Source: Eledone cirrhosa
Lineage: Eukaryota
Length of the DNA stretch: 64,000 nucleotides
NCBI GenBank assembly: GCA_964016885.1
Contig: OZ024744.1
Span: 55,676,001 to 55,740,000 of the forward strand
Direction: 5' to 3'
The notes below the pieces were generated by a model. The model saw only the letters and a program-made list of their open reading frames with translations. It did not search any database and had not been told where the DNA came from. Of the stretch, positions 17,960 to 49,748 are shown piece after piece. Positions within the stretch are counted from its first letter, which is position 1. Each line of letters opens with the position of its first letter. Both the position numbers and the translations under genes were made by a program.

Positions 17960-19352
17960 ATTGTTGTAATAATATTGCCAGAAATAATAACAGAACATAC
18001 TCACTGTTTGGTTGGTTTTCGCTTCTGTATCTTTTATATCTCCACAGTTAATTCATTTGGTCCTCAATGTTTATTATTGACTGACCAACGGTAAAAAATA
18101 CAGATATAAATACATATTTATAGTCTAACAAAGTTCTTTCGTTGCACATCTGCAAAATCATCAGTGGTACTATTATGATCCTCCTGTTGTATTGTATGTC
18201 TACGCCATTTTTATTTTATCTGTTTATTTATTTATTTATTTTGGTCTTCTCTGTGCATGCATTTGCGCGTGTGTATAGTGTTTGGTGTGTGTGTTCGCGT
18301 TTGGGTGACTGTGTTTTGGTTATTGTATTCTATCTTAGTTTACTAGTGTGTGTTTATATGCGTTTGTTGTTATTGTGCTTGTGTATATATATATTTATTT
18401 ATTTATTTATTTATATTTCTCTTAAGTCAGTGTTGTTTGTTTGGGTGTTGTTGTTATTCCATTCATTTTTTCTGTTTAGCTTTGGCTTTCTATTTTGCTT
18501 GCCTCTATTTTGCTTGCCTCTCTGATTTGCCTATCTGCTGGCTCATTTCTATGTTTAGATATTATTTTAATTTCTATGTTGTCTATGTTACCGTCATGTT
18601 GTTGTCTGGTGTGTTTGTATAGTACTGAACCATTTTTTCGTCCTTTTAATTTCCCCTGTGTTGGTCCATCCTTTCATCTATGTTACGAGCTGTCTCACCT
18701 ATGTATGTTGTTGTCATGTTTCTGCAAGTGTACATCTTATGCTATAGACTACATTTCTAGTTTTACAGTTTATCTGGGGATTTACTTTACATATAACACA
18801 TTTCCTATTAATACAGTGGGTTTTCTTAAAATGGTATGTTTTGCTGATCAGGGATTTTATGGTAGTTCCTGACTTTTCTACCACTTTAATCTTTAAGTGG
18901 GTCTTTCTCAGGGCCTTTCTACATTAGTTAGCTAATTTCTCTCCAGGGGTAGCGTCCATGAACATGACACTCTGGTATCTCTGGTTGTCGTACCATGAGG
19001 TGGCTTTCCCTATCTTATGTTTGGTCCTATCTAAGCTATTCCATGCTTTGCTCCTGTATAATGGGCAAATTCCTTTCATGTCCAGTTCTATGAGGGTCTT
19101 ATACTTCTCCGTGGCTCCTTTGTATACTCTGATTCTGTCTCTTTGGTTGTAGCCAGAGAACTGCATGCGGTTGATGAAGTGTTGGATGTGTCTTTCCATT
19201 TCTGTTGGGTTGCACATGCGGGACACGTTCTTCATCACTCGTACCAAGTCTGCGATCAGAATATTAAACTTAGCACTACTGGACATTGCTGAGTTTTTGA
19301 GTATCAGGTATTTGGAGGCCATGGGTTTAGTGTAGTGTGAGTGGGCTATAAT
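17960..19352 (-). mobile_element. Penelope-like element 3' part (RT thumb, frameshifted GIY-YIG, simple-repeat-rich 3' region)
   Basis: HYTKPMAS...NSAMS...SGY; downstream CKTRNVVYSIRC / YIGETAR. Confidence 0.8.
18120..18173 (-). ncRNA. Degenerate hammerhead ribozyme in Penelope 3' region
   Basis: CUGAUGA-UUUUGCA GAUG UGCAAC-GAAA; stem I imperfect. Confidence 0.5.
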
Positions 19353-19399: not shown

Positions 19400-19832
19400 G
19401 TAAACTATGTCTTAAATACAACGCTTGTAGTTTTCTAACGCTCTTGCAGTAGCTTTACGTTCAGCATCTTGCGATCATCCAATTGCAGCCTCCATTGATG
19501 ATTCATTTGCTTTTCTTCTTTTCCCTCTCTCAGCTTTCGCCGTTTCTCAACCAATGGCGGATCTCTTCCTTGGAGGCATTATCTAAGGAAAGAGGACATT
19601 ACACACTAAGATAAGTAAAATGTTAACCAACAATTATTTAAGTTTCGTGACTGTCACGGTGATCCAGAGACAGCCTTCGTCTACCTTAGATAAAAACTTG
19701 AACATTTTATGAGTCCACAACATTTCTAGGAACATAACGCATGTTTGTTCCAAAGCTGAAGAAAATCAGTTGCTAACTGTAGAAGTTATGTAGGTACGGA
19801 CATACACACATCCTCAGTTTTATATATGTAGA
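19400..19832 (-). mobile_element. Helitron 5' fragment
   Basis: TCTACATATATAAAACTGAGGATGTG 5' end; MPPRKRSAIG... start resembles the RepHel start at 56990. Confidence 0.65.
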
Positions 19833-19932
19833 TATATAAGTGTTGAAGTTTCCGTGGAAAAAGTAAAAGGAATGAAGAGTGCTCTATGTAAGTAACAGAG
19901 CTAAATATTTAATGTATAATAAACAACACAGT

Positions 19933-20097
19933 ATAATTACCTCATTACTCGAGGTTTCCCGAACAGGATGAACACAAGAGATGTCCACATTCGTTCATCA
20001 GATAAGGCAATATCTGATATTGCTTTATCTGACAAATGAATGCGGACGTCTCTTGTGTTCGTCCTGTTCGGGAAACCTTGAGTAATGAGGTAATTAT
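19933..20097. ncRNA. Fold-back palindrome with two hammerhead motifs (minus 19937-20010 intact core; plus 20020-20093 with CUGACAA)
   Basis: Minus: UUGCCUUAU CUGAUGA ACGAA...UUCGG GAAA CCUCGAG UA^AUGAGGUAA; 9-bp stem I. Confidence 0.7.
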
Positions 20098-20099
20098 TT

Positions 20100-20810
20100 A
20101 GATGCATGTTTGTGTGCGTGTGTGCGTGCGTGCGGACATTGTAACTTCCCCGGACACACACAACGCACACACACTCACACACACACAGAGTCACAGTATG
20201 GCTTGTGTGAAAGAGAGAGAGAAAATAACGTACGGTTGAGGAAGGGGGAGAGTTAAACAGTGTGTACAGAATAAATAAATAAAAGTTAAAATTATCGAAC
20301 ACTGTTATCATTTTCTCCCCTCCCCAAACCCCACTCTCTTTTTTTCTTTCTCAAACCCTCTCTTTCTTTTTTTCTCATACTCTCCCCCCTCTCTCTCTCT
20401 GTCATACCCTCTCTCCCTTTCTCTACAGAATGGAGAACAATCAAGAACGCACATTGTCGTCTGCTTTGTTTGAAATTTCTCTATGTATATTTCTAAGTTG
20501 TTGCCTCGTTTTGGAGGACTGAGTTGTGGGAGGAGGAAGGGGAGTAGTGGGAGGGAGAGTTTGACATAATGTAATAGTATCTCCTCTACCCCTCTCTCAC
20601 TGAAACGTATTGTCTTTCCTCCTCCATTGTAAAGATGTTCCCAGGGGTTTCATTATTGATTTTTATTGAAATCCAATTAGCCAGTCTTGTTTCTGAATAT
20701 TAGCTTAACATGTGTGTAAAGTTTCATCAGGATCAGATCACTGGTGTAGGGACCAAGTGGTTATACACATGTACACAGACAGACAGAAATTGCTATTTAC
20801 ATAGTAGGTA
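20100..20810 (-). mobile_element. Probable non-autonomous Helitron-like element
   Basis: End ACAGACAGACAGAAATTGCTATTTACATAGTAG resembles the other Helitron 5' ends here; other boundary uncertain. Confidence 0.45.
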
Positions 20811-35057: not shown

Positions 35058-35589
35058 CTAGTATTGGTACTAACTTAAAATTCACTCCAATCATCATCAT
35101 CATCATTTTACATCTCCTTTGATGATGATTGGAGTGAATTTTAAGTTAGAACCAATACACTGACTAAAGTGGTTGGTATTAGGAAGAGCATCTAATCAGA
35201 AATTATGATAAGAATGGTTGAGATGACATTCTAATCATAACACAGCAATCTGGTGGCACGAAAAATGCACCGAGTACACCCTGCTAAGTGGTTGCTGATA
35301 CGGAGGGCATTCACCTGTAGAATCTATACCAAAAACAAGACAGAGAGTACTTATCATTTGTATTAAGGACATAACAACCTTTCCAGGCTTGATGAAATAC
35401 ATGATAAACTCACCCAATATAATCTGTAAAGTGGTTGGTGATAGGAAGAGTATCAAGCCATAAGAAATAGGCCAAACAACCCTATATGTGGTAGCTGTAC
35501 ACTTAGCAATAGTTTCAGATCTACAACAACTATATCCCCATCATATACACATCATTCATATGCATTTAAAATAATATATATATATGAAG

Positions 35590-43131: not shown

Positions 43132-44011
43132 ATCAGTTACTGAAATAGCTGTGACTTAGGCAAGCCAGGTCAGATGACCATGTCTTACTCATATAGAACT
43201 GATTCTGGCTATATTTCTATGGTTGGATGCCCTTCCTAACGCCAACCACATATACAGTTGTTACTGGGTGCGCTTTGTCGTGGCACCATCTCCGTCTGCT
43301 GCAACAATAACACCAAATTCATGGGCCATCTCCGAATCAAATATTTTCTCTTTTCGTGTTTGCTGTAATTCCTTTTATTGATTAACTAATTATACAATCT
43401 GCACCAGATGATGTCACCATGGTCTTACAACACAACCAGGCCATTAAAATATGTATAGTATGTTTTACAACATTAAAACTTTAAATGGACCCAGTCTCCA
43501 AAGTACGGTTCCATTGTGAGCACAGTCCCAATATGGGCAAGGTACGGCACGGCCATCTGGCTAGATTTGATGCATATCAAGATCACCCAGTAACATGGCT
43601 TCCTCATTGTGGGACAACCGAGCTCCAAAATTACGGTTCCGATGTGAGCAGGGTATAGCGCGGCTAACTGGACAGACACTCCTCATAATAGCTCCACTAT
43701 GAGTAAGGCTTGGTGCAGCCAACTAACCAGACCAACCAGATCCCAAAATACAGTAACAGTCACGATATGTGCAAGGTATGGGCATGGCCATCTAGCCAGA
43801 CTTGGCTCATAACAGGACCACCCAATAACATGGCTCCACTATGTGTAAGGCTTGGCCTGGCCAACTAATCAAATCCCCCTCATAGATAGTGGGACCACCA
43901 GGTTCACAAATTATGGTTCTGATGTGAGCAGAATATGGCTAGATTCAGATCTAGCTGTCGAAACGGCCGGAGCTCAGCCATCAGGGTCCTGACTCTTTTC
44001 CTATATATATA

Positions 44012-46882: not shown

Positions 46883-47757
46883 CAGGGCTAGATTAATGAA
46901 ACTAATGGACACAGAGCTAGAGCACGTTGGAGATCTACCAACATCTGCACATAAGAAATTTACTGAAAATTAAAATACAAAAATACATAGAGTGATGCTG
47001 ACATTCAAGCATCCTTACATGCTGACTTCTAAAACATATACACCAAAGGAAAAAGAAATGTATTTAATAACAATTGTAATATTTGGGGAGAGTCATGATG
47101 TTATAATATTGCTAGAAAAATATATAGTAAAACACACCCACTGTTTGATTTGGCATGTTTTTTGCTTCAGTATATTTTACATTTCTATTAATTATAGCAT
47201 TAAATTAAAAATCGATTGACATATATAAAATAAACACATCAAACAATTACATGGGATAATTTGTAAAGAGTGTAAACACACATAGTTACGTAGGTAACAT
47301 TTTAAAATTTAACGAGAACTTCAAATATAGATACCTTACAATAATGATTAATCTCCTTTGTATATATTTCATTAAAGAAATATATTTCACCATTAATCGG
47401 TAAATCAGAGAAGTCAAATAATTAATTATAGAAATATAAAATATACTAAAGCGAAAACCAACCCAAACCAAAGAGTGAGTGTTTTATTATATCTTTCTGG
47501 CAATATTATAACAACATGACCCTCTCCAAATATTACACTATCTGTTTCAACATGATTTCATATTAAAAAAAAAAAAACCTTGCAAAACAAATTCATCGCC
47601 GTCACAATAATTGTAATATTCTAAATTTTGATGAAGTTGTACTTTACAGCAGTAATATAACATATATTTTAATATATATTTAAAACAAGATGGGGTTTCC
47701 CTGAATTATGAGACCCTGGGCTGTAGCCAACATAGACCATGTGTAAATGGGGTACTG
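46883..47757. mobile_element. Probable hAT-type MITE with an internal ~120-bp inverted repeat
   Basis: Ends CAGGGCTAGATTAA / TAAATGGGGTACTG; approximate TSD CTTGCA(A/G); internal arms ~47075-47195 and ~47420-47537. Confidence 0.5.
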
Positions 47758-48063
47758 CTTGCAGGTTTGTAAGGGCAAGAGGTCTTAAGATATCTTAAAC
47801 ATTGTTTAGTTTTCACAATAGAAAACTATAACGATTATATTAACTTTGAATTAGTTAAAAAGACAGAGAAATAATAAACTGGTATAGATAAACAACTTTT
47901 CAATAAGTTAAGTTATTATCTATTTAAAAATATGCAGACGAAGCAGTGTGACTAATTAAAACAATGCCAAACCCACCTAACTCCATTGCCAAAACAACAA
48001 TTTATGTCTGAAATTGTTTTTCTTTTTTTTCTTTTCCCTTTTTCATGTGACGCCCATAAATAT

Positions 48064-48095
<32 letters not shown>

Positions 48096-48241
48096 CATAT
48101 ATAATATATATATTAAAGAGTTAAACAAGATTCAATGAGTTTTATAGTAGATTGGAAGCACTCTATAAGTAAAATATTTTCCAGAGTTATTAATGTTAAA
48201 ATAAAAATATTAATAAAATAGATGTTCTTGTGATCAATTAA

Positions 48242-48294
48242 ATTTTATTATACATATTTCAGAGGTACAACAGTACGTCCTCATCAGATAAAAT
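48242..48294 (-). ncRNA. Type-I minimal hammerhead ribozyme
   Basis: AUUUUAU CUGAUGA GGACGUAC UGUU GUACCUCU GAAA UAUGUA UA^AUAAAAU. Confidence 0.75.
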
Positions 48295-48560
48295 AAAATG
48301 ATACATGACATACCCTGAGATGTTAAATGGTTAAGATTTAATCAAGGTAGTCTACTACCTGGATTAAATCTTAACCATTTAACATCTCAAGGTATGCCAT
48401 GTATCATTTTATTTTATCTGATGAGGTCGTACTGTTGTACCTCTGTATAATAAAATTTAATTGATCACAAGAACATCTATTTTATTAATATTTATATTTT
48501 AATATTATATATATACACAATATATTAATAAATGGAAACTATATTTATAAAACCACATTT

Positions 48561-48624
48561 ATTTTATTATACATATTTCAAGAGCAACCAAGGCAGATTA
48601 TGGTGCGCTTTCATCAGATAAAAT
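48561..48624 (-). ncRNA. Type-I minimal hammerhead ribozyme
   Basis: AUUUUAU CUGAUGA AAGCGCACCA...UGGUUGCUCUU GAAA UAUGUA UA^AUAAAAU. Confidence 0.78.
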
Positions 48625-48744
48625 ACAAATTTGTTTTATAAATAAATATTGACATACCCGGAAAAAAGACAACCTTAACGGTTGGAGCTTCCAAGGTTGT
48701 CTTTTTTCCGGGTATGTCAATATTTATTTATAAAACAAATCTGT

Positions 48745-48808
48745 ATTTTATCTGATGAAAGCGCACCATAATCTGCTTTGGTTGCCCTTGAAATATGTAT
48801 AATAAAAT
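48745..48808 (+). ncRNA. Type-I minimal hammerhead ribozyme (other arm of the palindrome)
   Basis: CUGAUGA 48752-48758; GAAA 48790-48793; 7-bp stem I. Confidence 0.78.
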
Positions 48809-49054
48809 AAATATAGTTTCCATTTATTAATATATTGTGTATTTACTCCACTAATTTGTTGAGTGCTCTTTATATCAGTTATAAAAATGTTTAAGCTTGT
48901 TGAATCCCAACAAATTAAATATAACCTCTGCATATATATATATATATATATATGTGAAGTAATTCCATCGGAAAAGTCCAGGAAAAAAGAGTGCTCTATG
49001 TAAGCAACAGAGCTTAATTATTATTATTATGTAATAAACAACATAAGGCAATTA

Positions 49055-49114
49055 TTCCATTTACCAGTGGTTTCTTAAAAGCAAAAGGTTTTGCTTTCAA
49101 TCCTCAGAATGAAA
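49055..49114 (-). ncRNA. Type-I hammerhead ribozyme
   Basis: UUUCAUU CUGAGGA UUGAAAGCAAA ACCU UUUGCUUUUAA GAAA CCACUGG UA^AAUGGAA; inverted 3'-half copy at 49381-49438. Confidence 0.72.
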
Positions 49115-49431
49115 AATCCTGGTTTGTTTATTGAATATGGATTCTAAAAACAAAAATGCAATCTATATGAAAGTGAGGCTGGAAAAGGGAGAAGGAAAGG
49201 AAAAATAAAATAAAATAAAACTACACATGCAAACACACACAAAAAAACACAAAAGCATACTTACACACACACACATATATACACATATAATTTGCACGCA
49301 TACACATATACACATACACACATATATAATATATATATATATATATATATACACATACATACATATATATACATATGTATAAGAAACCACTGGTAAATGG
49401 AATAATTGCCTTATGTTGTTTATTACATAAT

Positions 49432-49483
<52 letters not shown>

Positions 49484-49555
49484 GAGTTATAAACTCAAAT
49501 AGTCTTTTACAATTAAATAGCTCAAAGAAAGGAATATTTCTGAGCCTTGTAATAC

Positions 49556-49693
49556 AAATGAATATATGAGAGGGATAAACACTGATACAAGTATACATGT
49601 GTTCGTATGGCAAATGACCAACTTAACTTGGTCATTTGCAATGCGAACACATGTATACTTGTATCAGTGTTTATCCCTCTCATATATTCATTT
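49556..49693. repeat. Near-perfect fold-back palindrome, half-hammerhead-like
   Basis: Arms ~65 bp; right arm GCGAACACATGTATAC. Confidence 0.85.
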
Positions 49694-49694
49694 G

Positions 49695-49746
<52 letters not shown>

Positions 49747-49748
<2 letters not shown>

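Follow-up and report, generated by a model that had tools for sequence, protein, structure and literature searches.

Adjacent hammerhead-bearing palindromes in Eledone cirrhosa as probable truncated insertions of Penelope-like elements

Two palindromes in the DNA of Eledone cirrhosa, called A and B here, lie side by side and carry hammerhead ribozyme motifs in their arms. This raises the question of how such a pair arose and whether its ribozymes could act where they now stand. The window, i.e., the whole stretch of 64,000 nt that was analysed, consists of AT-rich animal DNA and contains numerous microsatellites as well as decayed ORFs of retroelements and Helitrons. In this setting A and B are most probably, at a rough probability of 85%, two adjacent insertions in a (TA)n tract, both of them dead ends, that derive from the pseudo-LTR, the hammerhead-bearing 3′ end of Penelope-like elements (PLEs).

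An earlier note on this DNA described two adjacent palindromes of about 320 bp, and the alignment of the arms agrees with it. Palindrome A spans 48191–48507 and palindrome B 48510–48842, each consisting of two arms placed head-to-head. The arms of A (48191–48351 and 48354–48507) align with 148 matches, 6 mismatches and one 7-nt gap, those of B (48510–48676(92) and 48693–48842) with 149 matches, 4 mismatches and one 14-nt gap. The note missed that both units are asymmetric, as a tail is present on a single arm, measuring 77 nt in A (48114–48190) and 89 nt in B (48843–48931) and followed by (TA)n, and the other arm runs straight into TA repeat. All four outer ends are therefore within TA repeat, which makes a target-site duplication unreadable at A and B. 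The ribozyme core is separated from the centre of the palindrome by 59–64 nt in both units. Both arms of A begin at the same base, for which random truncation alone is no explanation. A tandem-repeat search gave no tandem array at a score of at least 80, and A and B are not head-to-tail repeats. The features are as follows:

48082–48113, no strand: (TA)n-rich microsatellite bordering the tail of A, the likely target judging from its sequence
48114–48190, minus: one-sided 77-nt tail of unit A, present only beyond the left arm; diverged contigs and reads cover it from 48130
48191–48351, minus: left arm of A in minus-strand sense, with its 5′ end at the palindrome centre
48242–48294, minus: hammerhead motif of type I in A, intact and with cleavage predicted after 48249
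48354–48507, plus: right arm of A, an inverted copy that lacks a tail and has its outer end in TA repeat
48411–48456, plus: broken hammerhead of the A right arm, with a 7-nt loss in GAAA/stem III
48504–48514, no strand: short spacer of TA repeat, shared between A and B on the sides where they have no tail
48510–48692, minus: left arm of B, tail-less and in minus-strand sense, exceeding the right arm by 14 nt on the 3′ side of the ribozyme
48560–48625, minus: intact hammerhead motif in the left arm of B, with cleavage predicted after 48568
48693–48842, plus: right arm of B in plus-strand sense
48744–48809, plus: intact hammerhead motif in the right arm of B, with cleavage predicted after 48801
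48843–48931, plus: one-sided 89-nt tail of unit B, with deep coverage up to 48920
48932–48955, no strand: (TA)n microsatellite that follows the tail of B and also borders a neighbouring unit, C
50768–53084, minus: 5′-truncated PLE of another family than A and B, with the end of a GIY-YIG ORF at 52745–51951 and the same architecture

The abundance of these sequences was assessed with records from four of the 12 listed runs, laid on 48130–48920 at a likeness of at least 80%. Matching records amounted to 7730 contigs in X1, 633 contigs in X4, 49 contigs in X5 and 24892 RAD reads in X10, figures that are record counts and not copy numbers. X10 has the same species label as X1 and stems from a separate study, its molecule ends, which derive from a DNA RAD library, being disregarded here; X5 represents a different organism, and X1 may be the assembly's own source. 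The likeness was under 99% for 6014 of the 7730 X1 contigs and for 24644 of the 24892 X10 reads. As judged from these records, A and B are members of high-copy repeat families, which are dispersed, multi-copy and variably truncated. Among the records listed, 55 X1 contigs leave the palindrome at 48842 and enter (TA)n, tail-less, and coverage goes on through the B tail.

A scan with a type-I hammerhead descriptor locates intact cores at 48287–48249 (minus), 48617–48568 (minus) and 48752–48801 (plus), each with a stem I of 7–8 bp, AUAUGUAU as stem III and a predicted cleavage after AUA. When stem I has to be at least 7 bp long, the descriptor yields four matches in the window, compared to none in each of 30 block-shuffled windows. 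The type-I core CUGANGA...GAAA...UH is thus present together with stems I and II in three of the four arms, and the plus arm of A is broken by the loss of 7 nt from the GAAA/stem III region, as had been claimed before. The earlier note likewise stated correctly that stem I, the core and the self-complementary stem III are common to A and B, as all 33 ribozyme nucleotides compared are identical (14 of 14 and 19 of 19), and that two minus-strand copies lie about 320 nt apart, with cut sites at a distance of 319 nt. The self-complementary stem III also supports its view that these hammerheads would be of the dimer-requiring type, and the stem III homoduplex of AUAUGUAU is weak (−2.2 to −4.2 kcal/mol). 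The 10.1–11.1 pair is G–U in A and A–U in B, with no extra nucleotide before stem II, and a change at 48261 that yields a G–C pair occurs in 488 of 1281 X10 reads. Among the 40 of 124 differences listed for the records, none affects the core, and the stem I differences at 48289, 48565 and 48804, as read from the same table, retain a G–U pair. Rfam gave no hammerhead match at the gathering score and none among 72 matches at E ≤ 10. Matches to Rfam miRNA families were rejected, being below the gathering score and reflecting hairpins. Upstream of the ribozymes of A and B, the motif GGGUAUGUCA is common to 48306–48315 (minus) and 48710–48719 (plus) in otherwise unalignable sequence, a likeness whose score is reached by 26 of 2000 shuffles; it may be a splice signal or a protein-binding site.

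Outside the ribozyme nucleotides the two palindromes are hardly related. Every segment other than the 14 + 19 identical nucleotides is 44–52% alike, the 3′ parts of A and B stay within the range of shuffled sequences (67 of 1000), and the similarity between the two tails is not significant (186 of 2000 shuffles). The supposition that A and B differ in stem II only therefore does not hold, as they differ almost everywhere, and the comparison indicates that they are different families with a common ribozyme scaffold. Stem II itself had been described as unrelated and swapped between A and B, yet still paired. Pairing is indeed found in all four arms. The swap finds no backing, given the 44–52% likeness outside the core and stems I and III. 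In the left arm of A and the right arm of B, a C–C mismatch comes after the first three base pairs of stem II; the left arm of B has C–U at this mismatch, where most copies have C, and the right arm of A has an extra U–U. Further stem II types occur at loose ends beside the shared 19-nt motif, the commonest among the 24 of 608 listed being represented by 9622 and 2223 X10 reads, and in the fold of the commonest of these types a mismatch likewise comes early. The low likeness of all other segments together with these additional types points to a stem II that would have diverged with conserved shape, rather than to an exchange of unrelated modules.

We infer a PLE origin from the architecture of the units, the ribozyme type and the neighbouring elements, since neither A nor B has an ORF attached to it. 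Insertions of endonuclease-positive (EN+) PLEs are described as having an adjacent inverted 5′-truncated copy, a one-sided tail of 30–40 bp and a bias for microsatellites, and palindromes at head-to-head PLE junctions are interpreted there as self-priming (PMC8557442; PMC3846280). According to a biochemical study, a PLE protein cleaves and extends both strands at AT-rich DNA, the tail made by purified PLE equals the distance between two start sites of the reverse transcriptase (RT), and the protein-assisted hammerhead is dispensable for insertion in vitro (PMC11167929). With EN+ PLE insertions, A and B have in common the head-to-head inverted copy, the tail at one end and a microsatellite or AT-rich target (PMC3846280; PMC8557442; PMC11167929), as well as a hammerhead near the 3′ end and several insertions that are nested. 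They differ from these insertions by the lack of ORF sequence, by tails of 77–89 instead of 30–40 nt and by a target-site duplication that is unreadable.

The ribozymes themselves resemble the minimal type-I hammerheads of metazoan PLEs, sharing the CUGAUGA/GAAA/UH core, the long stem II and the palindromic stem III, next to the occurrence of many families per genome and of opposite-strand pairs a few hundred bases apart (PMC4209133). The same paper reports dual minimal hammerheads at a distance of 100–700 bp on opposite strands and characterizes minimal hammerheads by a stem III that is palindromic, by numerous variable families in each genome and by a low activity as dimers (PMC4209133); dimer cleavage of hammerheads is reviewed in PMC6765202. 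Compared to these minimal hammerheads, A and B have a longer stem I (7–8 bp versus 4–5 bp in schistosome PLEs; PMC4209133), a G–U or A–U pair at 10.1–11.1 without an extra nucleotide before stem II, and stems I and III that are identical between otherwise diverged families. A giant squid genome paper tallies 235 hammerheads without detail (PMC6962438).

Within the window, the plan of an inverted copy with a tail recurs in unit C (48956–49438), unit D (49484–49697), unit G (~19835–20100) and the GIY-YIG PLE at 50768–53084. The latter has an inverted copy of its 3′ end that is 99% identical, a one-sided tail of ~32–38 nt and (TA)n at both ends; it encodes a CxxC linker, and longer relatives of this element bear RT and GIY-YIG domains. 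No hammerhead was found in its 3′ region. For another, broken PLE-like ORF at 19454–18460 (minus), identity amounts to 66% with a protein whose label is that of an RT-domain protein from Octopus; its other relatives have weak RT and GIY-YIG scores under the Pfam cut-offs. A decayed hammerhead-like motif, read by eye, follows this ORF near 18170, and the 3′ end of the fragment 19454–17940 is homologous to an inverted repeat at 47075–47537 (72–78% identity). The host's retroelement proteins are nearest to those of molluscs, with one named match from Octopus.

A PLE ORF belonging to A or B was not found. When 123 PLE proteins were compared to the arms and tails, no match was convincing; their N-termini, compared to 47000–51200, gave only weak scattered matches, the best of them (E 0.009) outside A and B, and no ORF start in the tails. 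Comparison of A and B with an ORF-linked 3′ end, H, revealed no significant similarity 3′ of the ribozyme (618 and 771 of 1000 shuffles, respectively), and homology of the A tail to C, D, G or H is not significant either. A homology between the B tail and C is not claimed, as the score was reached by 17 of 1000 shuffles and the pair is one of 15 tested. A strict pattern of the family had no matches in metagenome and viral contigs. A relaxed pattern matched at least 119 loci; two of these 119 had a stem I of at least 6 bp, neither with a stem II, and none of the 119 matched the PLE protein, so that the loci were taken as chance. The missing ORF, the tails of about twice the published length, the lack of similarity to H, the absence of a hammerhead from the neighbouring GIY-YIG PLE, the unreadable target-site duplication, the 10.1–11.1 pair that is not G–C in this copy, the missing extra nucleotide before stem II and the common first base of the A arms were counted against a PLE origin.

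Following the PLE reading, the two palindromes could have formed by a PLE protein that was supplied in trans and nicked AT-rich DNA. Reverse transcription would have started at two alternative sites of the element RNA, giving a tailed and a tail-less end, and would have halted early, upon which the two short copies would be joined at their 5′ ends, either by two-sided priming or by fold-back. The hammerhead would stem from the source element; there, cleavage by the dimer would take place in tandem transcripts. Due to the head-to-head joining in A and B, the antisense arm is transcribed ahead of the ribozyme on either strand, which would lock the ribozyme in a hairpin.

A different function was put forward in the earlier note, in which dimeric cleavage by the two ribozymes of the minus strand could release an RNA of ~320 nt, which would be retrozyme-like, with the antisense arms acting as a restraint. 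The distance of 319 nt between the cut sites fits this model, identical stems I and III allow a heterodimer on paper, and monomers of animal retrozymes are reported to measure 150–450 nt (PMC7229834). A and B are also similar to animal non-LTR retrozymes in being non-coding, in the type-I hammerhead, in the ~320-nt spacing and in a probable PLE ancestry (PMC7229834; bioRxiv 10.64898/2026.07.22.740005). However, retrozymes are defined in these texts as tandem repeats (PMC7229834; bioRxiv 10.64898/2026.07.22.740005), the non-LTR type having head-to-tail units with one ribozyme each, whereas A and B are two different inverted units that abut. Head-to-tail tandem units bearing the hammerhead are absent, so A and B are not retrozymes in this sense. 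Unlike a retrozyme monomer, the 319-nt piece between the cut sites is not a repeat unit; it is a chimera of the 3′ end of B, the TA spacer, the antisense arm of A and most of the ribozyme arm of A, and is predicted to fold, mostly as a hairpin, at −160 kcal/mol. The spacing is explained by two insertions of similar size placed side by side. Folding predictions agree with the restraining role that the note assigned to the antisense arm, as the full palindromes are computed to fold at −207 to −222 kcal/mol compared to −5 to −7 kcal/mol for the ribozyme fold. Equilibrium predictions for six transcripts (both strands, full or from a centre) leave no more than one intact ribozyme free; the remaining ribozymes are 85–98% paired with the antisense arm, with a probability of 0.0 for stems I and II, and the ribozyme of the left arm of A is 85% paired whenever the same RNA includes the left arm of B. 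When pairs of ribozymes were cofolded freely, no active dimer resulted and stem I and core mispaired, in a nested-structure model that cannot represent the dimer. The ribozymes of A and B are thus predicted to be buried in a hairpin of 150 bp and inactive, none of the six modelled transcripts frees the two ribozymes, and release of a ~320-nt unit is very improbable.

Two further explanations concern the palindromes as such. The whole palindrome might be the mobile unit, copied in one piece as a fixed non-autonomous fold-back or MITE-like element, which would agree with the lack of an ORF, the very high copy number and the shared first base of both A arms. Several junctions among the 15 of 34 joints listed, most of them seen in one contig, also have the boundary 48691–48692 on one side. 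The other side varies, as this boundary is joined to 48835, 48837, 48868 and 48886 and, in the table of letters between joints, to 48899, and additional listed joints connect 48658–48659 to 48695, 48711 and 48750. Moreover, X5 copies run beyond both centres into different sequence, and the ends of the units are asymmetric, so that a palindrome moving as a whole is an improbable explanation, albeit less so than the release of a 320-nt RNA. Least probable of all is that the palindromes are fold-back artefacts of assembly or library. No listed record spans the whole stretch and palindromes are difficult to assemble, but an artefact would give identical arms, and those found here differ by 6 and 4 substitutions and by indels of 7 and 14 nt and have one-sided tails.

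Read as PLE insertions, A and B are ordinary, adding more truncated copies to those described. The remaining interest lies in the invariance of stems I and III across diverged families. In a dimeric hammerhead, stems I and III pair between the partners and stem II pairs within one partner. This pairing between partners would explain why stems I and III are identical while stem II drifts. It may be speculated that several diverged PLE-derived families of this genome have a dimer interface of constant sequence (stem I, core and stem III) and a common shape of stem II because their ribozymes cleave as cross-family heterodimers, an idea that we consider unlikely. If it is true, RNA of one family could license the processing of another's. 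No published account of the A/B family or of cross-family heterodimers was found in a search of mainly open-access papers. A, B and their relatives offer stem II variants of natural origin on a scaffold of stems I and III that does not change, which would make heterodimer cleavage by PLE hammerheads easy to test and bears on the question of the role of the ribozyme.

Several other units of the window have related parts. Unit C contains a hammerhead at 49107–49062 (minus) with ACCACUGGU as stem III, a tail of ~63 nt and an inverted copy of 59 nt that begins inside stem II. Upstream, around 49262–49177 (minus), a GTAAGT donor-like site and a polypyrimidine-CAG acceptor-like site are present, which suggests a retained intron. 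Unit G is a hammerhead-bearing palindrome that belongs to the family of C (the score of the likeness between C and G is attained by 0 of 1000 shuffles); its core lies at 20001–19946 (minus), with a 10-bp stem I and a stem III containing CUCGAG, and its centre is a few bases 5′ of stem I. Unit D consists of a 146-nt palindrome and a 68-nt tail. Like palindrome E (50366–50504), it appears to be centred on hammerhead stem II, the arms of D and E each containing only the 3′ half, i.e., GAA and a palindromic stem III-like sequence. Sequences at 50606–50703 (F) and 43946–44004 are related to E.

Elsewhere in the window, a lone compact type-I hammerhead motif at 58357–58387 (minus), ~120 nt from a TA repeat, has a 6-bp stem I, a short stem II and ACAUGU as stem III. 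A decayed Helitron with Helitron_like_N and PIF1 domains (53197–56800, minus) adjoins the GIY-YIG PLE. An isolated 98-nt hairpin with 39-nt arms, in which no ribozyme motif was seen, is located at 35061–35158, and a tandem repeat of 73 bp occupies 4150–8561 in ~60 copies, with 94% matches and an inverted repeat inside its unit.
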